Source: a bacterium (lineage in GTDB: Bacteria > Patescibacteriota > Minisyncoccia > Phycocordibacterales > UBA6899). Taken from it: a stretch of 64,000 nt of DNA. The stretch covers positions 6,576 to 70,575 of the forward strand of contig JAYTWK010000015.1 of NCBI GenBank assembly GCA_043743715.1, read 5' to 3'. Shown here in pieces: positions 8,766 through 50,898 of the stretch. The position numbers and the translations under genes were made by a program. Below the pieces are notes generated by a model. The model was given only the letters and a program-made list of their open reading frames with translations, made no database searches and was not told the origin of the DNA. How positions within the stretch are numbered: the stretch's first letter is position 1; each line of letters opens with the position of its first letter.

Positions 8766-9290
8766 ATGGAAGACTTTGCGGTATCGAACTTTGAACTCAT
8801 GGTGCGGCTCACGGTCGCGGTCATTCTTGGACTTATCATCGGATCGGAGCGCTCACGTGTAGGGAAGCGCGCAGGCATGCGCACCTATGCGCTCGTGTCC
8901 CTTGGCGCATGTCTTTTCATTGTCATGAGTGGCGTGGTCTCGGTGATGTATGCAGAGACGTTCACCTTTGACCCACTGCGCGTCGCCTCTCAGATAGTAG
9001 TCGGTATTGGATTCCTTGGCGCAGGAGTCATCTTTGTGCAAAAGAATGAACTCACCGGACTCACCACTGCGGCGGGACTGTGGGTAGTGGCAGCAATCGG
9101 AGCGACATGCGGGTATGGACTCTACGCCATCGCTACCTATGTCACATTCTTGACACTTTTTATTTTTGAGGCATTATGGTATTTTGAAGAACGCTTTGTA
9201 CGTATCGCGGACAAAACGCCGCAGCAAGAATTTTCAGAAGAAGTATTGAAAGCAAAGAAACCCACTCAGCATCATGAAGACGAAAGTTAA
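8766..9290 (+). CDS. MgtC/SapB family membrane protein
   Basis: MgtC signature (LGLIIGSERSRVGKRAGMRTYALVSLGACLF) with multiple TM helices. Confidence 0.8.
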   Translation: MEDFAVSNFELMVRLTVAVILGLIIGSERSRVGKRAGMRTYALVSLGACLFIVMSGVVSVMYAETFTFDPLRVASQIVVGIGFLGAGVIFVQKNELTGLTTAAGLWVVAAIGATCGYGLYAIATYVTFLTLFIFEALWYFEERFVRIADKTPQQEFSEEVLKAKKPTQHHEDES

Positions 9291-10140
9291 AAAAGCAATC
9301 ATTGCCGTCGCAGGAAGCGGAACGCGTTTTCTCCCTGCCACAAAAGCTCAGCCCAAGGAGATGCTTCCGATTATCGATAAGCCCATCATCCAGTATGTTG
9401 TTGAGGAATTAGTTGATGCAGGCATCGAAGATATTATTCTCGTTACGAAGTGGGACAAGAAGACCCTTGAAGACCATTTCGACCGCTCATTCGAGCTTGA
9501 GCACTCACTCGAGGCCGCCGGAAAGATGAAGATGCTAAGTGCTATTCAAAAAATCTCATCGATGGCGAATTTTATCTATGTCAGACAGAAAGGTCCGTAC
9601 GGCAACGGCACGCCCATACTCTCTGCCGCAAGTCTCATAAATGACGAGCCGTTCGTTTTTGCCTGGGGTGATGATCTTGTACTCTCGAAAACATCTTTCA
9701 CCAAGCAACTCATAGACAATTATCATGAGCACAACGCTCCGGTTATCGGTGTGCAGAAGGTGCCGAAAGACACCGTCGACCGCTATGGAATCGTCAAGCT
9801 CAGGCCGGGCACACGCGAGATGGAGCACGTGGTCGAGAAGCCTTCGATTGAGAAAGCGCCTTCGCAGCTCGCGCAATTTGGCCGCATGATTCTCACGCCA
9901 GAGATAGTCAATATCTTGAAAGAGACCAAGCTTGGTAAAGGTAATGAACTATGGGTCACCGACGCCATTTCCACCTATATCAAACGCGGCGGTAAATTCA
10001 TGGTGCAGGAAGTCGAGAACGGGCAGTGGCTGACTACCGGAGACCCTTTGAATTACCTGAAGGCGATGATCGAGTACGCGCTCGTGCGCGAGGACATCGG
10101 CGATGACTTTCGGAAGCATTTGCACTCGCTGAATCTGTAG
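9274..10140 (+). CDS. galU: UTP--glucose-1-phosphate uridylyltransferase GalU
   Basis: KAIIAVAGSGTRFLPATKAQPKEMLPIIDKPIIQYVVEE nucleotidyltransferase motif. Confidence 0.85.
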   Translation: MKTKVKKAIIAVAGSGTRFLPATKAQPKEMLPIIDKPIIQYVVEELVDAGIEDIILVTKWDKKTLEDHFDRSFELEHSLEAAGKMKMLSAIQKISSMANFIYVRQKGPYGNGTPILSAASLINDEPFVFAWGDDLVLSKTSFTKQLIDNYHEHNAPVIGVQKVPKDTVDRYGIVKLRPGTREMEHVVEKPSIEKAPSQLAQFGRMILTPEIVNILKETKLGKGNELWVTDAISTYIKRGGKFMVQEVENGQWLTTGDPLNYLKAMIEYALVREDIGDDFRKHLHSLNL

Positions 10141-32149: not shown

Positions 32150-33838
32150 ATGAATGTACTCATTTCTCAATTGCATAGTTCTTCACTCGATCTGATTATT
32201 CTTTTGATTGCACTTGCGATCGATATATTCCTTGCATTCATCGTCTATCTCAGCAATACAAAAAGCGCCACCAACAAGGTGTTCTCACTCCTCACTCTCT
32301 TCATGATGTTCTGGCTCGTGACGACCTATGCGCCGAGGATACCTGAATTACTGCCATACTCACTCCTCCTGCACCGGCTAGGAATATTCTTTGCCGCAGC
32401 AATGAGTGCGCTTTTTTTCCTGCTTGCGCACACAATGCCGGAAGAAAAGATTCAGCTGAAGAAACCCTGGTCCATCGCGTTCTGGATGTCGACGCTCCTG
32501 ATGATGACCCTGAACCTCTCACCATATGCATTCGTCAGCAGCACTATGGTAGACGGAGTGAGCCAGCCTCAGCCGGGCATAGGATTCATTCCATTTGCAT
32601 TTTTTTCGACATTATTCAGCATCCTTACGGTGTATGTCCTAGTTCATAAATATCGGCACTCCTCGGGGCATATCAAGCGCCAGATATGGTTGGTACTTTC
32701 GGGAATAGTCATCATGCTTGCCCTGGTCATTGCGACCATTCTTATTCCAATCATGTTCTTTGACTCACTCCAGTTCCTCTCCTTTGCGCCGCTCTATACA
32801 CTAGTATTCCTCGGCATGACCGCCTATGCCATCACCAAGTACCAACTGTTTGATATCAAAGTACTTGTCACTCAGGCGCTGACGCTCATCCTCTGTCTGA
32901 TACTTTTTGCAAAATTCTTAGGCGAAGGAAACGTCAGCGGCCGCGCTGTCGACGGTCTTCTCCTGTTTGTTGTTTCTATTTTGGGTTTCTTTCTCGTAAA
33001 AAGTGTGCGGAAGGAAGTCGAAGCACGCATTGAGATTCGTTCACTCGCAGACGAGCTCGCAGCAACCAACGTACAGCTTGAAGTCTCAAACGAGCGACTG
33101 CGCATCCTTGATCAGCGCAAGAGTGAATTCGTTTCGATTGCGTCTCATCAGCTGCGTACGCCGGTGACCGCGATGAAAGGATATTCATCACTGTTGCTTG
33201 AAAACGCGTATGGAGCACTGCCGGAGAAGATGAAAGATCCGGTAGAAAAGATATTCCGTTCGTCGGACCGCCTGGCGCTCATGATCAACGACTTCCTGAA
33301 CGTATCGAAGATCGAGCAGGGGTCGATGACCTACGCCTTTGTACCTCTTGATCTTAAGAAGATGGTCATAGACCTCGTGCAAGACTTCCACATCGTGGCT
33401 GGAGAGAAGAAGCTTGATCTTGAAACCGACATTCCTGATGGCGAGAAATTCAATGTAGTCGCGGATGAAGGAAAGATCAGGCAGATTATCTCAAACCTCA
33501 TTGATAACTCTATCAAATACACTCCAAAGGGTAGCGTACGCCTTATCCTTGCGAAAGAGCCGACACACGGCGAGGACGGTATGATACTGCTCCAGATCAA
33601 AGACACCGGTATCGGACTCTCTCAAGATGACATCCACCATCTGTTCGGCAAATTTACCCGCGGGGCAGAGGGCTCGAAAGTGAATACTTCAGGCTCCGGC
33701 CTCGGCCTGTATGTGGCGAAGAAAATGATGGAAGAGCACAAGGGAAATATTTGGGTGGATTCAGAGGGGAAAGGGAAAGGCTCGGTGTTTTGCATAGAAC
33801 TACCTGAGTTTCACAACGAGCTACCGAAGACTCCGTAA
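32150..33838 (+). CDS. Sensor histidine kinase (7-TM N-terminal sensor, coiled coil, HisKA, HATPase_c)
   Basis: H-box SHQLRTPVTAMKGY. G-boxes GSGLGLYVAKKMMEEHKGNIWVDSEGKGKGSVF. Multiple N-terminal TM helices. No response regulator in the window. Confidence 0.85.
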   Translation: MNVLISQLHSSSLDLIILLIALAIDIFLAFIVYLSNTKSATNKVFSLLTLFMMFWLVTTYAPRIPELLPYSLLLHRLGIFFAAAMSALFFLLAHTMPEEKIQLKKPWSIAFWMSTLLMMTLNLSPYAFVSSTMVDGVSQPQPGIGFIPFAFFSTLFSILTVYVLVHKYRHSSGHIKRQIWLVLSGIVIMLALVIATILIPIMFFDSLQFLSFAPLYTLVFLGMTAYAITKYQLFDIKVLVTQALTLILCLILFAKFLGEGNVSGRAVDGLLLFVVSILGFFLVKSVRKEVEARIEIRSLADELAATNVQLEVSNERLRILDQRKSEFVSIASHQLRTPVTAMKGYSSLLLENAYGALPEKMKDPVEKIFRSSDRLALMINDFLNVSKIEQGSMTYAFVPLDLKKMVIDLVQDFHIVAGEKKLDLETDIPDGEKFNVVADEGKIRQIISNLIDNSIKYTPKGSVRLILAKEPTHGEDGMILLQIKDTGIGLSQDDIHHLFGKFTRGAEGSKVNTSGSGLGLYVAKKMMEEHKGNIWVDSEGKGKGSVFCIELPEFHNELPKTP

Positions 33839-33861
33839 CTCTGCTAAAATCGCTCTATTAT
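33833..33861 (+). repeat. Left copy of a 29-nt direct repeat (CCGTAACTCTGCTAAAATCGCTCTATTAT) flanking the AT-rich island
   Basis: 27 of 29 positions identical to 35968-35996. Confidence 0.7.
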
Positions 33862-33882
33862 CAAATATGCCCAAAAAAGAAT

Positions 33883-34308
33883 ATGGATCTCACCATTCAA
33901 CTTGAAGGAATAAAACTAAATATACGGGTTGCGATACTTATTAAAACAGCAAAGGGGTACCTCTTTGAGAAGGGAAACAAAGGTTATTTATTTACGCTTG
34001 GAGGAAGAGTAAAGATAGGTGAAACTTCATTTGAGGCAGCAAAAAGAGAGGTGTTCGAAGAAATTGCCTATGATATTAAGAACATCAAACTTATGGCGAT
34101 TGTTGAAAATTTTTTTGGTCCTCTTGATGCACGGGTACAGGAGATCTGTTTTGTGTATAGCCATGAGGGAACAGTCGATATCAAATTGCCAGCAGAATTT
34201 GTCGAATTAAAAACATCTGAACTTGCCGACCAGGATATCAGGCCTGAGGTTATGAAAAAGATCATCGCTGAATCAAAAGATGGGATCAATCACTACATTA
34301 TTAAATAA
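33883..34308 (+). CDS. NUDIX hydrolase
   Basis: Nudix box GGRVKIGETSFEAAKREVFEEIAY (Gx5Ex7REUxEExGU). Confidence 0.75.
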   Translation: MDLTIQLEGIKLNIRVAILIKTAKGYLFEKGNKGYLFTLGGRVKIGETSFEAAKREVFEEIAYDIKNIKLMAIVENFFGPLDARVQEICFVYSHEGTVDIKLPAEFVELKTSELADQDIRPEVMKKIIAESKDGINHYIIK

Positions 34309-34356
34309 CATGGTGATTCGTTTATAATTTCCCTACAACGTAAAATTTGAATTATA

Positions 34357-35235
34357 ATGGAAAATGCGAATGAAATGTTGTTTTCTAGGCACCTTGATGA
34401 AGTCGATGACCTGAAAACATACGGGCGAGACGCACCACTCGAAAGATCACCAGAAAATCACGAAAAATTAGAGAAGGCAACTGAAGCGATATATCAAAAA
34501 ATAGTTACTTCGGGTAAAAAAGCGGTACTCTTTATTACTTCTCCAAGAGTGAGGGCAACCGAAACCGCTGAACTGATCGCAATGGGATTAACGCAGAGAG
34601 ACCCTTCTCTCAAAATAAGATTTTCTTCAAATGAGGATTTGAAAGCGACTGAACAGGGAGAATTCGTGCTGCCTGATGATTACGAGCAAAATAATTTTTT
34701 TGTGGGCCTTGATATCGCATCTAAGATATTCACAAAAGAAGCTCACCTGTCGGATGAGCAAGGAATGGAGGATAATATCTCTTATCGATTTGGGGATCCA
34801 ATACAATTACCTGATGGTAGCTACAAATATCCCGAGCTAGTCGAACACTTCACTAAAACAGGCGAATCATATGCTGAGACTCTCTCACGCATTTTCAATT
34901 CTGTTCTTGAAATGAGTGGGAAGTACGACAAGCTTATGGAAGCAACGGAAGTCGTGATCGTTGCACATGGTCAAATTTATCACGTACTAAGAGGGCTGTC
35001 AGAGATTCATCGAATGATCAAAGATGGTGAGATCGAATTCAAAAAAGGCGACTCAATGAAACTTATATGGAAAATCTATAATGATTGTGATCCAAGTCAA
35101 AAAGTAACAGGAATATGTATGCCATTAGATTTTAATGCACTAAATGACCCTGCTGCCATGTCTTTGCTTGAGGGAGAAAGAGAGATATTACAAGGAGCCA
35201 CTGATTCTGATAGCCATGGACATCGAAAAACTTAG
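34357..35235 (+). CDS. Histidine-phosphatase (phosphoglycerate-mutase-like) superfamily protein, tentative
   Basis: ...ITSPRVRATETAE... and ...VVIVAHGQI... resemble the SixA/PGM branch motifs. The N-terminal RHG motif is degenerate (SRHLDE). Confidence 0.35.
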   Translation: MENANEMLFSRHLDEVDDLKTYGRDAPLERSPENHEKLEKATEAIYQKIVTSGKKAVLFITSPRVRATETAELIAMGLTQRDPSLKIRFSSNEDLKATEQGEFVLPDDYEQNNFFVGLDIASKIFTKEAHLSDEQGMEDNISYRFGDPIQLPDGSYKYPELVEHFTKTGESYAETLSRIFNSVLEMSGKYDKLMEATEVVIVAHGQIYHVLRGLSEIHRMIKDGEIEFKKGDSMKLIWKIYNDCDPSQKVTGICMPLDFNALNDPAAMSLLEGEREILQGATDSDSHGHRKT

Positions 35236-35908
35236 CCGCGAGATACCACTCTTAGGCTGCAGCGAAAATATAAAGTGCTTTTTATTATATGGTTCTTTGC
35301 TTAATAAAAACCTAGGTGACAAAAAAGACTCTGACATCATAGTTGTACTCAAAGACATGGGGGCAGATCAAAAGGAATTGGCTGATTTTATTTATAATAA
35401 TCTTCCAAATCCTGATCTTCATGTGTATTCCTCAGAAGAAGTTGAGAGTGATCTTGCATTTTATACCAGAGAATATATCCTCGAATACCTTTCAAAAGGA
35501 TATGTTTTGTATGGCGAGAACGTATTCAAGAAAAAATTCAGTCAGGTGGCAAAAAAACAATACTGTGAAAGTATTCTTATCAGATCATTTGCGCATGTAC
35601 AAATGGTCAGAAAGACATATTTTAATACCAATCACAATCTTGAATATAAATCATCTTATACTAAAAAATACATCATTAGATTATCGAAGAATATACTTCT
35701 TTTTAAGGGCCTCGAGACTTACGATAAGCTGGACATCTTGTCAGATGAACAGGTGGTGGAAATCATCCAAAAAAATGATTTACTCGATGCGGGGTATCGC
35801 TTTAATGATAATACTCAGCCACTTGAATATTTCTTTAGATTATTTTGCGATCTTGGGCATAACTTGATAGATTTTCAAAATGAATTCGCTAAAGAACAAA
35901 AAGCCTGA
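35216..35908 (+). CDS. Nucleotidyltransferase-domain protein (KNTase-like: N-terminal minimal NTase plus a C-terminal helical domain)
   Basis: LLYGSLLNKNLGDKKDSDIIVVL matches the GS...D.D NTase motif. The start was reassigned to the ATG at 35216. Confidence 0.5.
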   Translation: MDIEKLSREIPLLGCSENIKCFLLYGSLLNKNLGDKKDSDIIVVLKDMGADQKELADFIYNNLPNPDLHVYSSEEVESDLAFYTREYILEYLSKGYVLYGENVFKKKFSQVAKKQYCESILIRSFAHVQMVRKTYFNTNHNLEYKSSYTKKYIIRLSKNILLFKGLETYDKLDILSDEQVVEIIQKNDLLDAGYRFNDNTQPLEYFFRLFCDLGHNLIDFQNEFAKEQKA

Positions 35909-40112: not shown

Positions 40113-40913
40113 ATGGACGACACCGCAGTTTTAGACTCGCCCGAAGTATTGGGAGAAACAAAAGTAAATTATCACATCAAACACGAACAGTTTGAAGGGC
40201 CACTTGATCTTTTGCTCAATCTTATCGAAAAACGAAAGCTGTTCATCAGCGACTTTTCGCTCTCGAAAGTTGCCGACGACTACATCGAACATATTCGTCG
40301 TTTCGAAGAGTATCCAATGAACGACGTAGCGAATTTTCTTCTTGTCGCATCAACCCTGGTACTTATCAAATCAAAGACCATCCTTCCACAGCTCACACTC
40401 ACACACGAAGAAGAAGGAGATATCGATGACCTCAAGAAACGCCTCGCTATGTACGAACTCTTTCGCAATCTCGCAGGCGAGATAAAAAATGTCTACGGCA
40501 AAACCCTCATCTATGAGCGCAGCGGACGCCCGGAGCTTGTACCGGTATTTGCTCCTGATGCAAGGACAAGCATTGCGGGAGCGCACGAAGGAGTACTGCG
40601 CGTAATAGCCGCACTTCCGAAGAAAATTTCTCTACCGAAAGCTGTAGTGAAGAAAGTCATTTCACTCGAAGAGATGATGACCCGACTTGCGACACGTGTG
40701 ACGGCTGCACTTAAGACCAGCTTCTCGCAATTCTCTCGCTATACGAAAGGTAAACAGCTACAGAAGGAAGAGAAGGTCGAGGTGATCATCTCATTCCTCG
40801 CGATGCTCGAGCTGGTGAAGCAGGGGATTGTGCATGTCACGCAGCACGAGGACTATGGCGATATCGATATCGAAACTCATCAGTTCGGAATACCGAATTA
40901 TGGCAGTACGTAG
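40113..40913 (+). CDS. scpA: Segregation and condensation protein A (kleisin ScpA)
   Basis: FEGPLDLLLNLIEKRKLFISDFSLSKVADDYIEHI. Confidence 0.8.
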   Translation: MDDTAVLDSPEVLGETKVNYHIKHEQFEGPLDLLLNLIEKRKLFISDFSLSKVADDYIEHIRRFEEYPMNDVANFLLVASTLVLIKSKTILPQLTLTHEEEGDIDDLKKRLAMYELFRNLAGEIKNVYGKTLIYERSGRPELVPVFAPDARTSIAGAHEGVLRVIAALPKKISLPKAVVKKVISLEEMMTRLATRVTAALKTSFSQFSRYTKGKQLQKEEKVEVIISFLAMLELVKQGIVHVTQHEDYGDIDIETHQFGIPNYGST

Positions 40914-40995
40914 ATCATAGTACGTAGTTCGTAGTCTACGTATTGCATCTCACTATAGTCTACGGTCTACGTACTACGAACTAACACGCGTACTT
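40905..40995 (+). repeat. Cluster of short direct and inverted repeats of TACGTAG/GTCTACG units between scpA and scpB
   Basis: agtacgtag occurs twice, (g/a)tagtctacg twice, and gtagttcgtag with its reverse complement ctacgaacta(a)c. It overlaps the scpA stop codon. Confidence 0.6.
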
Positions 40996-41055
40996 CAACA
41001 AACGACTGATTTACGCTAGACTCTAAAAGACAGAATTAAGCCCCAAATCATAACC

Positions 41056-41802
41056 ATGGAATTAGCAAATCTCATCGAAGCCATACTGTTCTACCAAGCC
41101 GAACCGCTTTCCGCGAAACGACTTGCCACGCTTACCAAGAAAAGTGAGGGGGAAGTTTGTGATGCGCTCAAGATACTTGAAGAGAAGCTTTTGAATACCG
41201 GACTGCGACTACTGACAAACGGTGATGAGGTTGCACTCGGCACTTCACCCCTCGCAGGAGCTACTATTGAAGCAATTACCAAAGAAGAGCTTTCGAAGGA
41301 GCTTTCCAAAGCCTCGCTCGAAACGCTTGCTATCGTGCTCTATAAAGGACCCCTCACGCGCGCCGAAATAGACTACGTGAGAGGCGTGAACTCAACATTC
41401 ATTCTGAGAAATCTCCTCATTCGCGGACTGGTCGAGAAGATAGATAATCCGGGAGACCAGCGAAGCTTCCTGTACAAGCCGACATTTGCACTCCTTGAGC
41501 ACATGGGCATAACACGAATAGAAGACCTGCCCGGTTACAGCCAGACTCAATCTGCGCTTCTGGAATTCCTTGCCACACATGCAGAAGAAACAAAAGCTGA
41601 TGATGTATCGACTGAGAGTGAGGAGGCAAGCGCGCTACCCGAGACAGAGCCCGATGCTCCGGATGAAACAAGTGAATCAGGTGACGCTATGGACCCTATG
41701 AACGAGGTCATAGCGGATATCACTGAAGAAGATGAGGCGGGAGGGAATTTCGATGACCAAGCGCTCCAGGATCACCGCAAGACTGACGAAATGAGTGTCT
41801 AA
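41056..41802 (+). CDS. scpB: Segregation and condensation protein B (ScpB) with an acidic C-terminal tail
   Basis: Tandem winged-helix ScpB pattern (LIEAILFYQAEPLS...LETLAIVLYKGPLTRAEIDYVRGV). Confidence 0.8.
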   Translation: MELANLIEAILFYQAEPLSAKRLATLTKKSEGEVCDALKILEEKLLNTGLRLLTNGDEVALGTSPLAGATIEAITKEELSKELSKASLETLAIVLYKGPLTRAEIDYVRGVNSTFILRNLLIRGLVEKIDNPGDQRSFLYKPTFALLEHMGITRIEDLPGYSQTQSALLEFLATHAEETKADDVSTESEEASALPETEPDAPDETSESGDAMDPMNEVIADITEEDEAGGNFDDQALQDHRKTDEMSV

Positions 41803-41807
41803 ACATT

Positions 41808-42848
41808 ATGTCGAGAATCCAATTACAATTTCTTTTAGTGGTGATGATACTGGGGTTCCTTACCGGACCCCGTGTGTTAACCGCACTTGAAAAAATCGTT
41901 CCAAATAACGGACTCTCAAATACCGAACAAGCATCAGGGATTGTCGCACTAGGAGGGCAGCCTATATCCGGCAGTGGCAGAGCGAGCGATGACCCGTATG
42001 AACGCCTCCATCTCGATGCGCGCAGCGTTTACGTATGGGACAGTCAGACCGGCAAAAAATTGTACGGCAAGAACGAACACGAAGTGCTGCCACTCGCGTC
42101 GGTGACCAAGATGATGATGGCACTTGTGGCGGTCGAACTCTTGCCGCAGAGTACCGAAGTGAGCATCGCACCGATTGACCTCCTCGAAGAAGGCGACACA
42201 GGCCTGTTGGTAGGTGAGAAGTGGGCGCTCTCGGACCTCCTTAAATTCACACTGGTCGCATCATCAAACGATGGCGCAAGCGCAATAGCAAGTGTGGGAG
42301 GAGCATCGCTCATGCGTGAAGCATCATCGACCGATCCGTTCACAAACAAGAGATTGTTCATTAAGCGCATGAATGAGAAAGCCGACTCTATTGGATTATT
42401 GAACACCAGGTTCGCGAACGAAAGCGGCCTCGATATCGACAGTGTGACCGCTGGTGCATATGGCTCGGCGCGCGACATGGCGAGACTATTTGAGTATATT
42501 GCCCGTAAGTATCCTGAACTCTTCGCTGCGACTACTTACTCGAAGATAGACGTGCGCTCCGACTCAAATGTCATCCACCATGTCGCAAACACAAACGCAG
42601 GCGTCGAAGAGGTGACCGGACTCATAGGCTCGAAGACCGGCTACACCGATCTCGCGGGCGGCAATCTTGTCGTGGTGGTCGATATTGGTGTGAGTCATCC
42701 TGTGGTCATCGCAGTACTCGGCTCAACTAAGGGCGGCCGCTTCACTGATGTGAACAAGCTCGTCAATGCGACGGTCGAGAAGATTACCGGCGGCTACGGC
42801 ACAGCGAGCACCACACCAACAACTGCCACTAGCAGTACTGCTGGGTAA
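41808..42848 (+). CDS. Serine-type D-Ala-D-Ala carboxypeptidase (low-MW PBP, DacA-like) with a Thr-rich C-terminus
   Basis: SxxK motif ASVTKMMMALVAV. SxN (SSND) and KTG (KTGYT) motifs. Confidence 0.8.
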   Translation: MSRIQLQFLLVVMILGFLTGPRVLTALEKIVPNNGLSNTEQASGIVALGGQPISGSGRASDDPYERLHLDARSVYVWDSQTGKKLYGKNEHEVLPLASVTKMMMALVAVELLPQSTEVSIAPIDLLEEGDTGLLVGEKWALSDLLKFTLVASSNDGASAIASVGGASLMREASSTDPFTNKRLFIKRMNEKADSIGLLNTRFANESGLDIDSVTAGAYGSARDMARLFEYIARKYPELFAATTYSKIDVRSDSNVIHHVANTNAGVEEVTGLIGSKTGYTDLAGGNLVVVVDIGVSHPVVIAVLGSTKGGRFTDVNKLVNATVEKITGGYGTASTTPTTATSSTAG

Positions 42849-42926
42849 GTATTACAATAAATGTAGGGTCGTGCGGTGATTTTGCATTCACTACCTACTA
42901 CTTACTACCTACTAACTACTAACCTC

Positions 42927-43982
42927 ATGATCACCGATGTACTCAAGATACTCATCCCGTCAGCGGTGGCATTCTTCATCGGCATCCTCATCACTCCGAC
43001 CGTTACAGACTTTCTCTACAAACATAAGATGTGGAAGAAATCGAGTGTGAAGCTGGCGATGGATGGACAAGCGGCAACTATTTCCTCGAAACTGCATAAC
43101 GATGAAGAGCGCAAGACCCCGCGCATGGGCGGCATCATCGTCTGGGGGAGTATCGCTCTTACGACAACGCTCTTTTGGGTGATAGCGCATCTGTTTCCGA
43201 CCACTGAAACAGCAAAACTGAATTTCTTTTCGCGCAATCAGACATGGCTACCGTTTTTCATACTTCTCGCAGGAGCCACATGCGGACTCATCGACGACTA
43301 TCTCGTCTGCAACGACAAGGGCACATACAAAGGCGGAGGCCTTTCGCTCAAGACACGCATACTATTTGTCTCTCTCCTTGGTGCGCTCGGTGCATGGTGG
43401 TTCTACGGGAAACTCGGTGTTGACTACGTGCACATACCGTTCTGGGGTGATCTGCATCTTAGACTCCTCTTTATTCCCGTGTTCATCGTCTTTGTCATCG
43501 GCATCTACTCGGGCGGTATTATCGACGGCGTCGACGGACTTTCAGGCGGCGTATTCGCGATCATTTATGCCGCATACGCGGTCATCGCATTCGCCGGCGG
43601 ACAGATCGATCTTGCGGCGTACTCGGCGGTAGTCGTCGGCGGACTCTTGGCGTTCTTGTGGTTCAACATTCCGCCTGCGCGCTTCTTTAATTCCGAGACC
43701 GGTACCATGGCGCTCACCACCTCACTCGTCATTGTCGCATTCCTTACCAAGGCTGTGGTGCCGCTTCTTATCATCGGATTTCTTCTCATTGCGACCAGCG
43801 CATCGAGCATCATCCAGATACTCTCGAAGAAATATCGAGGAGGGAAGAAAGTCTTTATTGTCGCCCCCTTACACAATCACTTCCAAGCGCTCGGCTGGCC
43901 AAGCTATAAAGTGACTATGCGCTACTGGGTCATCGGCATGATGTTTGCGGTAATTGGCGTCATCGTCGCACTAATCGGGTAA
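42927..43982 (+). CDS. mraY: Phospho-N-acetylmuramoyl-pentapeptide transferase MraY (the tracked start at 42876 would translate the upstream TACTAC repeat)
   Basis: MraY motifs (..MGGIIVWGS.., GIIDGVDGLSGG, ..LIIGFLLI..). Confidence 0.85.
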   Translation: MITDVLKILIPSAVAFFIGILITPTVTDFLYKHKMWKKSSVKLAMDGQAATISSKLHNDEERKTPRMGGIIVWGSIALTTTLFWVIAHLFPTTETAKLNFFSRNQTWLPFFILLAGATCGLIDDYLVCNDKGTYKGGGLSLKTRILFVSLLGALGAWWFYGKLGVDYVHIPFWGDLHLRLLFIPVFIVFVIGIYSGGIIDGVDGLSGGVFAIIYAAYAVIAFAGGQIDLAAYSAVVVGGLLAFLWFNIPPARFFNSETGTMALTTSLVIVAFLTKAVVPLLIIGFLLIATSASSIIQILSKKYRGGKKVFIVAPLHNHFQALGWPSYKVTMRYWVIGMMFAVIGVIVALIG

Positions 43983-44232
43983 CGAGTAATTTTAGCGATC
44001 TGCTTCGTCGCGCGCGCCGAAAACCCCTCCAAAATATATGAATACTCCTCAGGGGTATTCCGACTTCGCTTCTCGCATCTCATCTAAAATAACTTGTTAC
44101 CACCCGGTACAACCCAAAAAGTACTGCTTCGGCATCGCCTCAAATTTGCCTCAAAGCTAGCGCGCTTGCATTCGTCTGAACATTGGGCTCAGGAGCTTCC
44201 ATAAATCAGAAAGTTCGCTATAGTGAATCAAC

Positions 44233-47200
44233 ATGAAGCCCGAAGGAGCGATTGATATATACCTGCAAAAAGTGGCTTCCGGGCTTGCAACGGGTCATGC
44301 GCGTGAACATGCGCATCGACCCGCATTTCAGGAGCTCATCCAATCATTCGAGAAAGAACTCCAGATCGTGAACGACCCAAAACGCAGTGAGTATGGAGCT
44401 CCAGATTTTATTTTTCTGCGTAAGGACCTTACGGTCGGATATGCCGAGACAAAGGATGTCGGCGTGAGTTTGGACAAGACCGAAAAATCTGAGCAGATGG
44501 CTCGTTATCTAGGATACTCAAATCTTATCCTGTCGGACTATCTCGAATTTCGCTTCTTCCGCAATGGCGAACGCTATGCAGAACCAATCATGATTGCGGA
44601 AATGAAGAACGGCACTCTGCTCATGAAGCCCGAGAACTTCAGACTCCTCTCGGATACGATCGCGGACTTCCTCAAGGCAGCGCCAGAGAACATACGCAGC
44701 GGTACTCGCCTCGCGAAGATCATGGGCGGCAAGGCAAGGCGCATCAGGGAGAACGTCGCAAAGTTCATCGAGGATGAATCAGAACGAGGGAGCGAACTAC
44801 GCGCGATCTACGCGATTATCAAGAAGCTTCTCGTTCACGATCTTTCCGCCGAGGCATTCGCAGATATGTACGCACAGACCCTCGTCTATGGGCTTTTCGT
44901 AGCCCGCTATCACGACGAAACACCCGAGAACTTCACAAGGCAGGAAGCGCGCGACCTCGTACCTCCGTCCAATCCTTTTCTTCAGCATTTCTTCGACCAC
45001 ATTGTCGGTCCAAATTTCGACAAGCGTCTCTCGTATATCGTCGACGAGCTTTGTGCGGTCTTCTCAGTCGCAGATGTAAAGAAATTGATGGGAGACTATT
45101 TCAAGCTCGGTGAGAAGGAGAAAGACGCACCCGACCCTGTCATCCATTTCTATGAAGATTTCCTTAAAGAATATGATCCCGCACAGCGACTCAAACTCGG
45201 TGCATTCTACACACCGCTTCCGGTCGTGCGCTTCATCGTCCGCGCGATTGACGACATCCTCATCCGCGACTTCGGGCTCACAGAAGGTCTCGCCGATACC
45301 TCGAAGATCGAGCGCGACGTCGTCATGCAGGGGAGGAAGGGGAAAGAGTCGCTTCATCGCGTGCAGTTCCTTGACCCTGCGGTCGGGACGGGCACATTCT
45401 TGAATGAAGTAGTAAAGGAGATCGCGGAAAAGTTTAAAGGGCAAGAGGGAAGATGGAAGAGCTACGTCGATGCTGAGCTTTTGCCACGCCTCCACGGCTT
45501 CGAGCTGATGATGGCACCGTACACCATCGCACACCTCAAGCTCGCAATGACGCTGCGTGACAGCGGCTATGAAAAGTTCAGTAGGCGACTTGGTATCTAC
45601 CTCACCAATTCGCTTGAAGAAGCGCACGAGGATGACAATTCGCTCTTTGGCCCAGGCGTGACGGGCTCAATAGCACAAGAAGCACTCGACGCATCGGACA
45701 TCAAGAACAACAAGCCAATCATGGTGGTCATGGGGAATCCGCCTTACAGTGGCGTCTCTTCAAATAATGGTGAATTTGCGCAAAATCTTGTAGCGAGATA
45801 CAAAGTCGAACCAGGTGGTCTCAATAAACTCAAAGAACGTAATTCGAAATGGATTAATGATGATTATGTAAAATTTATCGCATTTGCTGAGAGCATGATT
45901 GAAAAGAATGGTGACGGTATTCTTGGCTTCATTACGAATAATGGCTATATCGACAATCCCACATTTCGAGGAATGCGGTGGCATCTCGCAAAGACTTTTG
46001 ACAAAATTTATATAGTCGACCTTCATGGAAATGCAAAGAAAAAAGAAACAGATGCCAGTGGAGGAAAGGATGAGAATGTATTTGACATTCAACAGGGCGT
46101 TGGCATCTTGCTTGCAGTAAAAACAGGGCAGAAGAAAAAAGGTGAACTCGCTCAAGTTTTTCACGAAGAACTTCTCGGTATGCGTAGTAGAAAATTTGAC
46201 ACGCTGAGCAATCATGCAGTTTCATGGAGAGAGGTTGTACTCGATGCAACAACGATGGCTTTTTTGCCAGAAGAAAATCCAGAACTCAAAACAAACTACA
46301 AAAAGTTTATTTCTGTGCGTGAATTATTTCACGAGAACGTACTGGGATTTCAAACACATAGAGACGAATTTGCGATATGCGATAGTCGCGAGGAGGTTGT
46401 TCGACGTTTGGATGTACTTTTATCTGATGTGGATGATAAATTTATCTCAGAGAAGCATAAAGTAAACAACAATAGGGACTGGAACTTAAAAGAAGCGCGC
46501 ATACGATTGCGTACGCAATCTGAAAAAGAACGTAGTAATTTAAATTCGACTTGTTCCTACCGACCTTTTGATACAAAGTGGACCTATTTAGATGAAGTTT
46601 TTTCAGATTATCCTCGAACCACTTTTAAGAAACATTTATTAAATCGAGAAAACTACGTACTTGGCATTGGTCGTCAAGGATTGGCGGTTGGTGGGATTGA
46701 ATGGTGTCTCGTTTTTGTTTCTAAAGATGCAATTGATGCGAACATGTTTCGTCGCGGTGGCATAAACGCATTTCCCCTCTATCTTTACGCCGACGATGGC
46801 TCAAAAGTCTCGAATCTTGATACAAAAATAGTTGAGAAGATTACAAAGAGATTTAAAGAGAATGTTCTTCCTGAAGATATCCTTGATTATGTTTACGCGG
46901 TGCTTCACTCGCCGAGCTATCGTGAAAGGTATAAAGAGTTCCTCAAGATCGATTTTCCGCGTGTGCCGTATCCGAAGGACGAAGCAACGTTCTGGAAACT
47001 CGTTGATAGGGGACGCGAGCTGCGCAAGCTCCACCTCATGGAGTCTCCCATACTCGCGAAGCTCATCACCACATTTCCCGAAGCAGGGGAGAACGTGGTC
47101 GAGAAAATATCATACTCGAACGGAAAAGTATTCATTAACAAAACCCAATATTTCGGCAGCGTCCCCGAGGTAGCATGGAGCTTCTATATCGGCGGCTACC

Positions 47201-47340
47201 AGCCCGCACAGAAGTGGCTCAAGGATCGGAAGGGAAGAGCGCTCACAAACGACGACCTCGTACACTATCAGAAGATCATTGTGGTACTCGTCGAGACTGA
47301 CCGGATCATGAAGGAAATAGGCGGAATCGATTTTCTTTGA
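44233..47340 (+). CDS. Type IIG/IIL restriction-modification enzyme (MmeI/Eco57I-like): N-terminal PD-ExK nuclease, gamma-class N6-adenine MTase and C-terminal TRD
   Basis: N-terminal ..PDFIFLRKDLTVGYAETKD.. (D...ExK). NPPY motif in VMGNPPYSG. FxGxG-like AdoMet region (LDPAVGTGTF). 1035 aa single polypeptide. Confidence 0.75.
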   Translation: MKPEGAIDIYLQKVASGLATGHAREHAHRPAFQELIQSFEKELQIVNDPKRSEYGAPDFIFLRKDLTVGYAETKDVGVSLDKTEKSEQMARYLGYSNLILSDYLEFRFFRNGERYAEPIMIAEMKNGTLLMKPENFRLLSDTIADFLKAAPENIRSGTRLAKIMGGKARRIRENVAKFIEDESERGSELRAIYAIIKKLLVHDLSAEAFADMYAQTLVYGLFVARYHDETPENFTRQEARDLVPPSNPFLQHFFDHIVGPNFDKRLSYIVDELCAVFSVADVKKLMGDYFKLGEKEKDAPDPVIHFYEDFLKEYDPAQRLKLGAFYTPLPVVRFIVRAIDDILIRDFGLTEGLADTSKIERDVVMQGRKGKESLHRVQFLDPAVGTGTFLNEVVKEIAEKFKGQEGRWKSYVDAELLPRLHGFELMMAPYTIAHLKLAMTLRDSGYEKFSRRLGIYLTNSLEEAHEDDNSLFGPGVTGSIAQEALDASDIKNNKPIMVVMGNPPYSGVSSNNGEFAQNLVARYKVEPGGLNKLKERNSKWINDDYVKFIAFAESMIEKNGDGILGFITNNGYIDNPTFRGMRWHLAKTFDKIYIVDLHGNAKKKETDASGGKDENVFDIQQGVGILLAVKTGQKKKGELAQVFHEELLGMRSRKFDTLSNHAVSWREVVLDATTMAFLPEENPELKTNYKKFISVRELFHENVLGFQTHRDEFAICDSREEVVRRLDVLLSDVDDKFISEKHKVNNNRDWNLKEARIRLRTQSEKERSNLNSTCSYRPFDTKWTYLDEVFSDYPRTTFKKHLLNRENYVLGIGRQGLAVGGIEWCLVFVSKDAIDANMFRRGGINAFPLYLYADDGSKVSNLDTKIVEKITKRFKENVLPEDILDYVYAVLHSPSYRERYKEFLKIDFPRVPYPKDEATFWKLVDRGRELRKLHLMESPILAKLITTFPEAGENVVEKISYSNGKVFINKTQYFGSVPEVAWSFYIGGYQPAQKWLKDRKGRALTNDDLVHYQKIIVVLVETDRIMKEIGGIDFL

Positions 47341-47356
47341 TCGCGTGATATACTGA

Positions 47357-48382
47357 GTGGAATCAATGAAATTTACTCGGACAAAAAAACTAGCATTTGT
47401 CAATAATAAGGGTGGGGTTGGAAAAACAACACTTGCTTTTAATTGTGCTGTTTCTTTTGCTAAAGAGGGATATAAAACAGTGCTCATCGATCTCGATCCG
47501 CAATGCAATCTTTCACGGCTCGCAATGGGCGAGAGCTATTATATCGACCATTTATTTTCTCCGCTTGAAAAAACTATTTACGATGTACTGCGCGGGGTGA
47601 TCGAGGGAGGGAGCGACATTGATCTCAGCACAGCTTTTTTGCCGGTACAAGCGCATACAAACCTCTCACTCCTCAAGGGTGACATTAATCTGTCGATGTA
47701 CGAGAGTTTACTTGCGACTGCGTATGGATCAGCGGCTGCGGGTCAACCCCTTGGATACTTTCAGACCAGTGCCATCGATAGGTTTTTGCGTGAAAAGGGA
47801 CTGAAAGAGGAAGTGGACATTTTCATCATCGACACTTCTCCGAGTTTAGGCATTCTCAATCAAACCATACTTCTCGGGACAGACTACTTCGTAGTACCAA
47901 TGATGCCCGATGCGTTTAGTGTGCAAGGTATAGAAAATCTGGGGACTATCTATGAAAGATGGAAGAATCAGTGGCGGGTTACCGCAAAAGCACTTTCTGG
48001 GAATACTGAAACAAAAAATGTACTCCCCGGTGATCCATTGTTTATTGGTTATATCGTCAACTCATACAATGTGTACGGCAAACAGCCGATCGCGGATCAC
48101 CGCTCATGGATGAAAAAAATCCCTGATCACGTGCGGAGATATTTATCAGAAAAGCATTGCCGAAATGGGCTCGTAGAAAAAAGTTGGAAGGAGCCACTGC
48201 AGATAGTCCAAGACTACGGTAGGATACCTGCAAAATGCCAAGAATTGGGCGTCGCGGTATTTGAACTCGACCCAACACTCGTTGAAGATCATCATCAGGG
48301 GACAAAAGATAACATCGACAAATCAAAAGAGGAATTCAAAAATCTTTCCGACCGCATCTTGCAGATCCTTGCCGCTTATTGA
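47357..48382 (+). CDS. ParA/MinD-family P-loop ATPase with a roughly 90-aa C-terminal extension
   Basis: Deviant Walker A KGGVGKTT, and DLDPQCNLS. Immediately downstream of and co-directional with the RM enzyme. Confidence 0.7.
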   Translation: MESMKFTRTKKLAFVNNKGGVGKTTLAFNCAVSFAKEGYKTVLIDLDPQCNLSRLAMGESYYIDHLFSPLEKTIYDVLRGVIEGGSDIDLSTAFLPVQAHTNLSLLKGDINLSMYESLLATAYGSAAAGQPLGYFQTSAIDRFLREKGLKEEVDIFIIDTSPSLGILNQTILLGTDYFVVPMMPDAFSVQGIENLGTIYERWKNQWRVTAKALSGNTETKNVLPGDPLFIGYIVNSYNVYGKQPIADHRSWMKKIPDHVRRYLSEKHCRNGLVEKSWKEPLQIVQDYGRIPAKCQELGVAVFELDPTLVEDHHQGTKDNIDKSKEEFKNLSDRILQILAAY

Positions 48383-48428
48383 TACTGCATAGGTCGAGAA
48401 ATCCAGCATAAAAGCCTATCACACGCTA

Positions 48429-49568
48429 TTGGGGACAGCGAAAGCTCGATTCTGGGCTATAATACAGACCATGCACAGTCGCGGCGGAGTCGACAGAGTT
48501 TTCTTGGCTATCATCGTTACTCTTATCTCTCTAGGAGTATTGGTGTTTATTTCCGCATCACTCGGCACGCTCTCAAGTAATACCTCGAAATTCACCAACC
48601 TCCTCATCAGCCAGCTCGGCTTCGGGCTTGTGCTTGGAAGCATAGCGATGTACGGTGCATCGCGTCTCAAATATCAGTTCTGGCGCAAGCACGCGTTCTG
48701 GATTTTCCTTATCTCAATTATTCTCTCGGTGCTAGTATTCATTCCTGGAATCGGCATGGAGCACGGGGGAGCACGGCGCTGGATAGACCTGCGAATCACT
48801 ACACTCCAGCCCGGAGAGTTCCTTAAGTTCGGAGTCATCGTCTATCTCGCCGCATGGTTCACCTTTATCAAGAAGCGAATTCACTCGCCGCTGTTTGGTA
48901 TCTATCCACTCATGGGCATGCTCGGTATCGCAGGAGGACTCCTCCTGGCGCAACCTGATACCGGAACTTTCCTCATCGCGGTCGCAGCCGGAGCGGCAAT
49001 GTATATTGCAGCCGGAGCACGCTGGCGCGATATATTTATATTATTTCTACTCGGAATAGTCGTCGTCGGCGCTGTCGCGGTATGGAAACCGTATGTGCGG
49101 GCGCGCATTGTCACACTCATCCATCACAGCGACTTTCAAGGATCGGGCTACCAGCTCAAGCAGTCACTTATCGCCATTGGTAACGGCGGAGTATTCGGAA
49201 AGGGGTTAGGGCAGAGCGTACAAAAATTTAATTATCTTCCGGAAGCACAGGGAGATTCTATCTTCGCAGTCTTAGGCGAAGAATTCGGCTTCGTCGGCTG
49301 CACGGTCATCGTCATGCTCTACGTGCTTTTTGCCCTACGTGGCCTATGGATAGCATCGAAAGCGCCCGATAAGTTCGGTGGACTACTCGCAGTAGGGCTT
49401 GTTATACTTATCACGGCACAGTCATTCATCAATATCGCCTCAATGCTTGCTATCGCCCCACTTACGGGCGTGCCACTCATCTTCATTAGTCAGGGTGGGA
49501 CCGCGTTATTACTTGCTATGGCTGAGGTAGGCATTTTACTTAATATATCCAGGTTTAGAAACACTTAA
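48429..49568 (+). CDS. ftsW: SEDS-family peptidoglycan glycosyltransferase FtsW/RodA (possible start at 48471)
   Basis: 10-TM SEDS topology. Sits in an ftsW-murG context. Confidence 0.8.
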   Translation: MGTAKARFWAIIQTMHSRGGVDRVFLAIIVTLISLGVLVFISASLGTLSSNTSKFTNLLISQLGFGLVLGSIAMYGASRLKYQFWRKHAFWIFLISIILSVLVFIPGIGMEHGGARRWIDLRITTLQPGEFLKFGVIVYLAAWFTFIKKRIHSPLFGIYPLMGMLGIAGGLLLAQPDTGTFLIAVAAGAAMYIAAGARWRDIFILFLLGIVVVGAVAVWKPYVRARIVTLIHHSDFQGSGYQLKQSLIAIGNGGVFGKGLGQSVQKFNYLPEAQGDSIFAVLGEEFGFVGCTVIVMLYVLFALRGLWIASKAPDKFGGLLAVGLVILITAQSFINIASMLAIAPLTGVPLIFISQGGTALLLAMAEVGILLNISRFRNT

Positions 49569-49758
49569 ACCACAACATGAACTTTGACCACACACATTAC
49601 CAGACTCACACGCGCAATGATGGAATTTTGGATGCAATGCGGCTTTGTTTTTCGAAGAATGTCGCAGGGGCTGTAGTCGGCTACTGTCACGCGACTTCGC
49701 AGGAAAACAAAGATGCAGTGCGCCGAAATTACGCATTGCGCAGCTAAACAATTACCAC

Positions 49759-50898
49759 ATGAAGATATTATTTGCAGGAGGCGGTACAGGCGGGCACTTC
49801 TATCCGATAATCGCTATCGCAGAAGAAGTGAATAAGCTGATAGACACGACACACCTCGTGGGTATCGATATGTATTTCATGTCGGACTCTCCGATTGACC
49901 TCGAACTCCTCAAAAAAACCGGCATCACCTATATCGAGGTGCCGGCAGGGAAGCGTCGCACCTATGCTTCGATACAGAACTATCTCGATATCTTTAAGAC
50001 GCTTTACGGCTGCGTCGTTGCGACGTGGAAGATATTCTTCCTCTATCCCGACGTGGTCTTCGGCAAGGGCGGCTATGCCAGCTTCCCGGCGATGTTCGCT
50101 GCAAAGCTCCTGCGTGTGCCTGTGGTCATTCACGAATCCGACACCGTGCCAGGGAAGGTCAATAAATATATCTCACAGCATGCACAGAAGATAGCCATCT
50201 CATACCCTGAAGCCACGCAGTTCTTCCCGAAAGGAAAAGGTATGCAGGAGAAGATGGCGCTCACAGGCCAGCCGGTGAGGAAAACATTGCTTGAGATGCC
50301 GCCCGAAGATCCGTATGAAATATTCCACCTTGAAGCGAATATTCCTATCATTTTAGTGCTCGGTGGCTCACAAGGCTCGGAAAACATCAACGAGAACTTA
50401 ATCGACATCATGCCTCGACTGGTACAGAAGTATCAGGTCATTCATCAGACTGGCGAAAGCAACTACGAGTGGATGAAGAAACGCGCAGCAGGAGCACTCG
50501 CAGGGATAACGCATAACGAGCGTTATCATCCCTTCGGTTTTCTTGAGGTCAAGCAATTGCGCATTGCCGCGAAAGGCGCATCGCTCGTCGTTTCGCGTGC
50601 GGGCTCGACTATTTTTGAGATATCACTCTGGGAGAAACCGTCTGTTCTCATCCCGCTCGCCATCGCGCGCGATGACCATCAGCGCAAGAATGCCTATAGC
50701 TATGCGCGCAGCGGGGCAGCACTTGTGGTCGAGGAGCAGAATCTTAAACCCGAACTATTTTACAATGCGGTCGAAGGAATTATGGATGATCCTGCGCGTC
50801 AGCAGGTGATGATCGAAGGAACCAAGCAGTTCGCGAAAGTTGATGCAGCAGAAAAAATTGCACAGTTACTACTCTCGATATCAACGCATCACGAATAG
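49759..50898 (+). CDS. murG: UDP-N-acetylglucosamine--N-acetylmuramyl-(pentapeptide) pyrophosphoryl-undecaprenol N-acetylglucosamine transferase MurG
   Basis: MKILFAGGGTGGHFYPIIAIAEE. GT28 N- and C-terminal domains. Confidence 0.85.
   Translation: MKILFAGGGTGGHFYPIIAIAEEVNKLIDTTHLVGIDMYFMSDSPIDLELLKKTGITYIEVPAGKRRTYASIQNYLDIFKTLYGCVVATWKIFFLYPDVVFGKGGYASFPAMFAAKLLRVPVVIHESDTVPGKVNKYISQHAQKIAISYPEATQFFPKGKGMQEKMALTGQPVRKTLLEMPPEDPYEIFHLEANIPIILVLGGSQGSENINENLIDIMPRLVQKYQVIHQTGESNYEWMKKRAAGALAGITHNERYHPFGFLEVKQLRIAAKGASLVVSRAGSTIFEISLWEKPSVLIPLAIARDDHQRKNAYSYARSGAALVVEEQNLKPELFYNAVEGIMDDPARQQVMIEGTKQFAKVDAAEKIAQLLLSISTHHE

Follow-up and report, generated by a model that had tools for sequence, protein, structure and literature searches.

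DrdV, an enzyme of restriction–modification (RM) Type IIL from Deinococcus wulumuqiensis (PDB 7lo5/7lvv), carries a nuclease, a helical connector, a gamma-class N6-adenine methyltransferase (MTase) and a target recognition domain (TRD) in one chain of 1029 residues. It hemi-methylates its site, cuts at a fixed distance upon assembly on several sites, and contacts the bases through K486 and K488 in a loop of the MTase and through D803 and K807 in the TRD (bioRxiv 10.1101/2021.01.06.425610). Enzymes of the MmeI family likewise hold an N-terminal PD-ExK nuclease, a MTase and a TRD in a single chain and methylate a single strand, and their specificity is readily changed (PMC4833311; PMC2731914). 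Type ISP enzymes such as LlaBIII and LlaGI are longer (~1570 residues), with a superfamily 2 (SF2) helicase-like ATPase and a coupler placed between nuclease and MTase. That RM alleles exchange recognition domains is amply documented (PMC3983042; PMC4833311; PMC2731914); in the ‘domain movement’ described for Type I hsdS, Type III mod and Type IIG genes, a variable block within conserved sequence is exchanged by recombination (PMC3983042). Here, we describe an RM gene and an adjoining gene for a ParA-like ATPase in a 64,000-nt stretch (hereafter, the window) of contig JAYTWK010000015.1 from a member of the Patescibacteriota. We consider it likely that the locus encodes a DrdV-like Type IIL enzyme whose specificity cassette has been swapped, that the RM and ParA genes together form an insertion between mraY and ftsW, and that ParA is not a conserved partner of the enzyme. 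The coordinates of all features are collected in Table 1.

The RM protein is 1035 residues long. Pfam searches matched N6_Mtase and Eco57I in its MTase region and Type_ISP_C (PF18135) over residues 697–1028 (E = 6e-85), the latter from end to end of the profile (positions 1–342 of 342). Two PADLOC Type IIG models, which derive from REBASE, also matched (REase_MTase_IIG, E = 7e-281, and a second at E = 4e-110), the second spanning residues 17–1000. In sequence searches against solved structures, DrdV was the best match (7lo5, profile E = 3e-75), followed by LlaBIII (E = 4e-67) and LlaGI (E = 3e-59), and all of these alignments were restricted to the MTase and TRD. The N-terminal domain was not picked up by the PDB profile search, and its identity was confirmed with an AlphaFold2 (AF2) prediction and a fold search. 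The model of the first 300 residues, built from an alignment of 39 homologues, has a predicted local distance difference test score (pLDDT) of 87.5, and its best fold matches are DrdV chains (E = 8e-8 over 298 columns); the 146-residue chain 7lvv_D aligns with a template-modelling (TM) score of 0.67 and a root-mean-square deviation of 3.5 Å. Identity in these fold alignments is 15–18%, and the N-terminus of the RM protein is recognizable as DrdV-like by fold and motif only. DrdV is nevertheless the best solved relative along the whole protein: the order of the four domains is identical, and the PD...ExK and NPPY motifs align.

The residues expected to carry out catalysis are conserved. D58, E72 and K74 of the PD...ExK motif, D381 through F389 of MTase motif I, and the NPPY motif at residues 502–505 are invariant in the 33–39 homologues compared. 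No neighbouring gene, and thus no separate S, M or R subunit, is conserved across the six RM-homologue neighbourhoods, marking the RM enzyme as the product of a stand-alone gene. On the strength of its sequence and the modelled N-terminal fold, the open reading frame (ORF) is predicted to encode an intact Type IIL (Type IIG) enzyme with nuclease, connector, gamma-class N6-adenine MTase and TRD, and without a helicase. By homology with DrdV, the enzyme would bind an asymmetric site, methylate one adenine of host DNA, on a single strand, and cleave foreign DNA that lacks the methylation, at a fixed distance, when several bound sites have come together. The first-pass annotation, drawn from the sequence alone, had described a single polypeptide with a PD-ExK nuclease, an NPPY motif and a C-terminal recognition region, a description that the Pfam, PADLOC and DrdV matches bear out. 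It had also called the protein ‘MmeI-like’, which holds for the single-chain nuclease–MTase–TRD arrangement and does not extend to strict membership of the MmeI family: the MmeI_Mtase model scores 24.4 bits, under the Pfam cut-off of 27, other MmeI-named Pfam families are absent from the matches of the protein, the TRD belongs to Type_ISP_C, and DrdV is the best structural relative. The PDB sequence matches of the RM protein likewise include no chain of MmeI, whose structure is PDB 5hr4.

In class, the MTase and TRD match their counterparts in Type ISP enzymes, and several close homologues of the RM protein have been named ‘type ISP restriction/modification enzyme’ by NCBI annotators. We reject a Type ISP identity because helicase families (ResIII, Helicase_C, SNF2) are unmatched in the protein by Pfam and because the alignments with LlaBIII and LlaGI begin at their residues 833 and 669, respectively, after the motor domains. 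In the absence of the motor, the name is wrong for these ~1030-residue Patescibacteria proteins, and with both motor and coupler missing, the translocation–collision mechanism of Type ISP enzymes is inapplicable to the RM enzyme. The methylases PglX, of bacteriophage exclusion (BREX) systems, and Mad2, of the methylation-associated defence system (MADS), were also considered and rejected: the Mad2 model scores 19.6 bits against a cut-off of 720, PADLOC mad2 reaches only E = 2e-9, and PADLOC lists no PglX match for the protein. The neighbours of the RM gene are mraY, ParA and ftsW, which do not constitute a multigene BREX or MADS locus.

The gene itself is a mosaic. Between positions 45760 and 46900, GC content drops to 0.386 against a window mean of 0.486 (z = −3.3), lower than in all but one of the equally long stretches of the window. 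The change resides almost wholly in third codon positions, with GC content at first and second positions nearly flat; GC content at third positions (GC3) is 0.62 over codons 1–500, 0.33 over codons 501–890 and 0.65 over codons 891–1035. A two-breakpoint likelihood fit on third codon positions, with 200 shuffles as the null, delimited codons 509–887 (support intervals 501–512 and 882–901), with a GC3 of 0.32 inside and 0.63 outside (2ΔlnL = 93, a value matched by none of the 200 shuffles). The AT-rich stretch flagged at first pass is therefore real and sharp, and the change in GC is far outside noise.

Protein identity switches at the same places. Relative to the two closest relatives (P0002 and P0003), the RM protein is 85–86% identical over residues 1–300, 90–93% over residues 301–500 and 82–83% over residues 891–1035, yet only 48–51% identical over residues 501–696 and 32–35% over residues 697–890. 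The closest matches to residues 697–890 come from other homologues (P0017, 61%; P0007, 59%; P0006, 57%; P0004, 56%); together with P0005, these are 53–61% identical to the RM protein over this segment, yet their N-termini are just 52–66% identical to it (52–64% over the first 300 residues for P0017, P0007, P0006 and P0004). In sliding windows, the switches in identity fall at residues ~506–511 and ~885–900, coincident with the GC3 breakpoints. Across 119 homologues, identity in the N-terminal segments correlates with identity in the C-terminal segment (r ~0.4) and negatively with that in the middle segments (r −0.29 to −0.45), the negative values being inflated since the homologues were picked by total score. 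The left junction lies just past the invariant GNPPYS, and the right junction lies at the nearly invariant PEDxxDYxYAxLHSP; junctions placed at conserved motifs are consistent with homologous recombination within conserved flanks. The first-pass annotation had suggested ‘TRD or module replacement’. The coincidence of compositional and mosaic breakpoints upholds replacement of a module, and its extent needs revision, as the block includes the C-terminal half of the MTase and excludes the end of the TRD. The TRD is split such that its first ~190 residues are in the block and its last ~150 residues (from nucleotide ~46894) belong to the conserved backbone.

Alignment with the PDB sequence places the base-contacting positions of DrdV at residues ~537–540 and ~840–844 of the RM protein. 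Because both groups fall inside the block, it is best called a specificity cassette; the residues at these positions differ from those of DrdV. In the mechanism we propose, a cassette comprising codons ~509–887 would have been exchanged by homologous recombination within GNPPYS and PEDxxDYxYAxLHSP, the incoming allele deriving from a lineage of lower GC content. Such an exchange would leave unchanged the nuclease, the connector, the half of the MTase devoted to S-adenosylmethionine binding and catalysis, and the C-terminal scaffold of the TRD, and it probably alters the recognition sequence of the enzyme. The swap is a new example of a known phenomenon rather than a new principle. By way of comparison with the ‘domain movement’ cases, the block also takes in the C-terminal half of the MTase catalytic domain, and the event shows up within a gene of Patescibacteria as an abrupt step in GC3.

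In order to place the RM and ParA genes in their genomic context, 80 loci were retrieved from metagenomes using the FtsW of the window as query, and 62 of these carry both mraY and ftsW. The gap between the two genes is <300 bp in 59 of the 62, ~600–700 bp in two and 6.9 kb in one. The gene order scpB-dac-mraY-ftsW-murG is kept in related loci, dozens of which conserve it from scpB to murG, and no homologue of either the RM enzyme or ParA occurs in any of the 80. Because mraY directly adjoins ftsW in nearly all of these loci and neither gene is found in them, window positions 43983–48428 represent an insertion of ~4.4 kb that holds the RM and ParA genes. No direct or inverted repeats, integrase or tRNA were found at its edges. 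A search for terminator-like sites on the + strand between mraY and ftsW found none, and promoter- and terminator-like sites are no commoner than in shuffled sequence. Transcription probably runs through the insertion into ftsW and murG.

The segment of the division and cell-wall (dcw) gene cluster found in the window (40113–50898) reads scpA-scpB-dac-mraY-ftsW-murG, where dac encodes a D-Ala-D-Ala carboxypeptidase, and has no murD between mraY and ftsW. We considered whether the mraY–ftsW junction is a hotspot for defence genes and rejected this proposal, as the sole other large insertion (locus L125) holds a gene for a surface protein and no defence genes. That 6.9-kb insertion (L125 3056–10000) encodes a 1321-residue protein with bacterial Ig-like domains and Peptidase_S74 (an endosialidase chaperone), along with two unannotated ORFs.

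The second gene of the insertion encodes a ParA/Soj-family ATPase with a deviant Walker A motif. Its listed GTG start (47357) leaves a 16-nt gap after the RM gene; the ATG at 47366 is the most likely start because all homologues begin MKFTRTKK, which gives a protein of 338 residues and a gap of 25 nt. The gene is probably co-transcribed with the RM gene. Pfam matched AAA_31 (E = 2e-31) and CbiA, and the NCBIfam ParA, MinD, RepA and MipZ models all scored far below their cut-offs (ParA_partition, 63.7 against 180; RepA, 52 against 348; minD, 27 against 213). The best PDB sequence match is 3pg5 (E = 2e-26), which is DIP2308, an uncharacterized large ParA-like ATPase of 361 residues from Corynebacterium diphtheriae. 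An AF2 model of moderate confidence (pLDDT 68.5; predicted TM score 0.79) also has 3pg5 as its best fold match, followed by Soj/ParA structures, with a Foldseek probability of 1.0. DIP2308 is thus the closest relative in sequence and fold, and of similar size; identity in the fold alignments is 22–28%, and the match names a subfamily, not a role. The first-pass annotation had noted a C-terminal extension. A separate C-terminal domain is rejected, as the model aligns with 3pg5 and Soj/ParA over ~320–335 columns, and from this full-length alignment (at a pLDDT of 68.5) the extension would be an elaboration of an enlarged ParA fold rather than a known domain in its own right. PHROGs returned only a generic ‘ParA-like partition protein’ family, and two PADLOC matches to the P-loop region of candidate families (E = 1e-5 and 2e-3) were set aside as uninformative.

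ParA is a highly conserved protein. Among the 120 best database clusters, homologues are 77–88% identical across Patescibacteria, against ~50% for FtsW and MraY of related organisms. Codons are identical at 35–47% of identical residues, and the GC3 of the gene tracks the GC content of each host. Because synonymous codons are saturated and GC3 follows the host, a recent horizontal transfer of ParA is ruled out, and the protein is instead a long-term resident under strong purifying selection. Its conservation would thus reflect constraint, and we infer a slowly evolving orphan whose function is independent of RM. No relatives were found in viral contigs. Distant full-length homologues (~28–30% identity), which carry the annotation ‘ParA family protein’ or ‘AAA family ATPase’, occur in accessory regions of an Escherichia coli prophage and of Burkholderia and Pantoea plasmids (L144–L146). 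The E. coli copy (L146, IHE3034 chromosome, 8998–10074) stands beside the XRE/cI-like repressor of a lambdoid prophage that occurs in 109 of 5426 E. coli genomes; another follows a PRTRC system on a Burkholderia pseudomallei plasmid, and a third is near an Abi gene and transposases on the Pantoea plasmid.

To establish whether ParA and the RM enzyme belong together, both were examined in other genomes. The ParA set comprised 41 loci from species-representative genomes, nearly all Patescibacteria, whose ParA proteins are 51–83% identical. A Type IIG homologue, ftsW or mraY was found within 10 kb in none of the 41. Conversely, none of the six neighbourhoods of close and distant RM homologues contains ParA; there, the RM gene stands alone among variable genes, often of defence type (Fic, SocA, HEPN, HicA, a Gabija-like pair). 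ParA has no common neighbour, as no neighbour cluster is present in more than six of ~40 loci; the largest clusters scanned encode UvrA, HsdM, HsdS, a histidine kinase and HsdR. The ParB family is not among the 25 most frequent Pfam families within two genes on either side of ParA, and no parB-like partner stands out. Five further neighbourhoods hold a peptidase S24 gene, ruvA with a Mur ligase gene, an ABC transporter, ribosomal protein genes, and insertion sequence (IS) elements. The RM–ParA adjacency is thus not a conserved pairing, and ParA is not a dedicated partner of the enzyme; the suggestion made at first pass that ParA might be a component of the RM enzyme or part of a defence module finds no support as a conserved association.

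Several considerations weigh against the reading given above. No cassette donor with more than ~60% identity was found, and a search with residues 501–890 alone gave only proteins of ≤683 residues and ≤52% identity. In P0002 and P0003, GC3 also falls, though less strongly, within the middle module of each, so part of the AT-richness may be a general trait of circulating cassettes and not the trace of one recent event. The activity of the enzyme and the change of its target are predictions from homology. In about seven of 38 other species, members of the ParA family occur within or next to Type I RM loci, and a purely coincidental RM–ParA adjacency is therefore not certain. Finally, the sequence is a metagenome-assembled contig, and the mosaic could in principle be an assembly chimera that joined the RM alleles of two co-occurring populations at conserved motifs. 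Both breakpoints do coincide with the two most conserved motifs of the family, and an identical full-length RM protein was not found on any other contig; the proteins P0001 and P0121 of this sequence are each on record from a single NCBI contig of 96.8 kb. Such a chimera would, however, need two exactly placed in-frame switches, and the ORF is uninterrupted; relatives of the backbone are ~70–80% identical in nucleotide sequence near the junctions, making long exact k-mer overlaps unlikely; and conserved ends with unrelated middles recur across many independently assembled homologues. We regard an artefact as extremely improbable. Hardly more credible is the proposal that ParA is an ordinary chromosomal partition or division ATPase of the dcw cluster and that only the RM gene is foreign. 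Its fold and motifs are those of ParA/Soj/MinD, it sits directly upstream of ftsW, and it is highly conserved with a composition that matches each host. The first-pass annotation had pointed to ParA beside ftsW in relatives without the RM gene as the observation that would make it a division gene, and none of the 80 ftsW-anchored loci carries it. The absence of ftsW and mraY within 10 kb of any of the 41 ParA loci, the lack of an outstanding parB-like neighbour, and scores far under the curated cut-offs of every ParA, MinD, RepA and MipZ model speak against it as well.

A third explanation, which we consider doubtful though clearly less so than the previous two, is that ParA is a genuine accessory, or ‘restriction-linked’ gene, of Patescibacteria RM cassettes, with a set position behind the gene that bears specificity: hsdS-ParA-hsdR in a Type I cassette and Type IIL enzyme-ParA in the window. 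ParA might then regulate the RM enzyme or position it on the nucleoid, or it might constitute a module of its own, for defence or maintenance, that moves together with RM genes, and the pair would have entered the dcw cluster as one unit. The arrangement in the window fits this proposal, with both genes in a single insertion, on the same strand and 25 nt apart, and with no + strand terminator-like site between mraY and ftsW. So does a conserved Type I cassette found in three species whose flanking genes are unrelated (L013, L020 and L026; HsdM 73–83% and HsdR 67–73% identical to those of L020), where ParA stands between hsdS and hsdR. This cassette is mobile, and the defence-type cargo of its hsdM–hsdS slot differs among the three (AAA_14/DUF4143 with HEPN; HATPase_c_3; Shedu SduA_C). 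Elsewhere, the order is hsdS-hsdR-ParA (L040), or hsdM and hsdS lie 2 kb downstream of ParA (L016). In two loci, hsdM fragments (L024 443–637 and L025 1536–1688, corresponding to residues 415–483 and 385–435 of an HsdM) directly precede an intact ParA, and these look like decayed Type I systems that have retained it; in L132, an EcoRI-type methylase, RhuM and GmrSD are encoded 2–5 kb upstream. Linkage to hsd or Type IIG RM genes amounts to about eight of 39 species with the window included. No match to the same RM probes occurred in the 80 control loci anchored on ftsW (939 kb), an enrichment that is overstated, as the probes came from the ParA-anchored set and the controls lie in a conserved operon. 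The accessory regions of prophages and plasmids that house the distant homologues also accord with the proposal. On the other hand, no RM gene lies within 10 kb of ParA at ~80% of its loci, where the neighbours include gyrB, dnaX, uvrA and ruvA; all six RM homologues lack ParA; and the GC3 of ParA (0.44) departs from that of the RM backbone (0.62–0.65). ParA also evolves far more slowly than usual defence genes and outlives decayed hsd genes, and in some strains IS elements have inserted immediately next to it, such that its flanks may just tolerate insertions.

Restriction-linked ORFs inside Type I RM operons include prrC in EcoprrI and the rlo genes of Campylobacter, and PrrC and RloC are ABC-type anticodon nucleases. 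The Type I cassettes of L013, L020 and L026 resemble these in having an extra ATPase-type gene between hsdS and hsdR. Unlike PrrC and RloC, ParA is an ATPase of the ParA/Soj fold with no nuclease domain, and most of its copies are not RM-linked. We treat the recurrence of ParA beside RM genes as a lead and not a finding, and a functional link as possible at best, with the odds against it.

A number of other features were recorded in the course of the analysis. At one RM homologue of the cassette type found in the window (P0007; L148 787–6519), a Gabija-like pair, consisting of an OLD-TOPRIM ATPase and a UvrD-family helicase, follows directly, and two other RM homologues adjoin DUF2779 and SNF2-helicase genes. 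Strains with an identical ParA protein differ just downstream of its gene (L137 and L138 against L139; L140–L142), some having an inserted IS element (DDE_Tnp_1 with HTH_38) and another having rpsT directly after ParA; in the locus from another lineage, ParA is followed by an IS1595-family element. The window holds a second low-GC islet (33600–35900) with a GC content of 0.36–0.40, the lowest in the window, just past a histidine kinase gene (32150–33838). Its two overlapping ORFs (34357–35235 and 35144–35908) have GC3 values of 0.34 and 0.37, against 0.55 ± 0.07 for other genes, and only weak Pfam matches (His_Phos_1; Polbeta nucleotidyltransferase). This islet is probably another acquired segment.

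Table 1. Features of the RM–ParA insertion and its flanks (window coordinates) and of the related Type I cassettes (coordinates of the respective locus).
Feature	Position	Strand	Length	Basis or remark
mraY, left flank	42876–43982	+		TIGR00445, Glycos_transf_4
Non-coding spacer at left edge	43983–44232	.	250 nt	ORFs ≤53 aa only; no recognizable gene, tRNA, integrase remnant or repeats
RM enzyme ORF, single-chain DrdV-like Type IIL/IIG	44233–47340	+	1035 aa	PADLOC, Pfam and PDB matches
Predicted PD-(D/E)xK endonuclease domain and helical connector, aa 1–294	44233–45114	+		AF2 model, fold match, invariant residues
Nuclease residue D58	44404–44406			
Nuclease residue E72	44446–44448			
Nuclease residue K74	44452–44454			
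Gamma-class N6-adenine MTase domain, aa ~295–696	45115–46320	+		Pfam; aligns with DrdV residues 285–635
MTase motif I, DPAVGTGTF	45373–45399			
MTase motif IV, NPPY	45736–45747			
Replaced specificity cassette, codons 509–887 (C-terminal half of MTase and variable first half of TRD)	45757–46893	+		GC3 change-point, identity drop
Type-ISP-class TRD, aa 697–1028	46321–47316	+		Pfam PF18135; aligns with TRDs of DrdV, LlaBIII and LlaGI
Orphan ParA/Soj-family deviant-Walker-A ATPase, DIP2308-like	47366–48382	+	338 aa	AAA_31, CbiA, 3pg5
ParA Walker A, KGGVGKTT	47408–47431	+		
ftsW, right flank	48429–49568	+		TIGR02614, E = 1e-101, above cut-off
Type I cassette, L013	3973–13636			
Type I cassette, L020	5185–13422			
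Type I cassette, L026	5106–13422			

Taken as a whole, the locus represents ordinary RM biology together with one modest lead, the occurrence of a ParA clade in RM loci. As a naturally occurring specificity-cassette swap in a DrdV-like Type IIL enzyme, it is a clean case, mainly of descriptive value as regards the RM enzyme: both junctions map onto invariant motifs, and the MTase loop and TRD region aligned with the base-reading parts of DrdV lie within the block. The edges of the cassette mark a natural module boundary that could guide the engineering of new specificities in the DrdV-like family. The presence of a restriction gene inside the conserved mraY–ftsW junction of a cell-wall and division operon in a reduced genome is unusual. 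Should a functional link between ParA and RM prove true, a ParA-type ATPase would join the list of restriction-linked genes.

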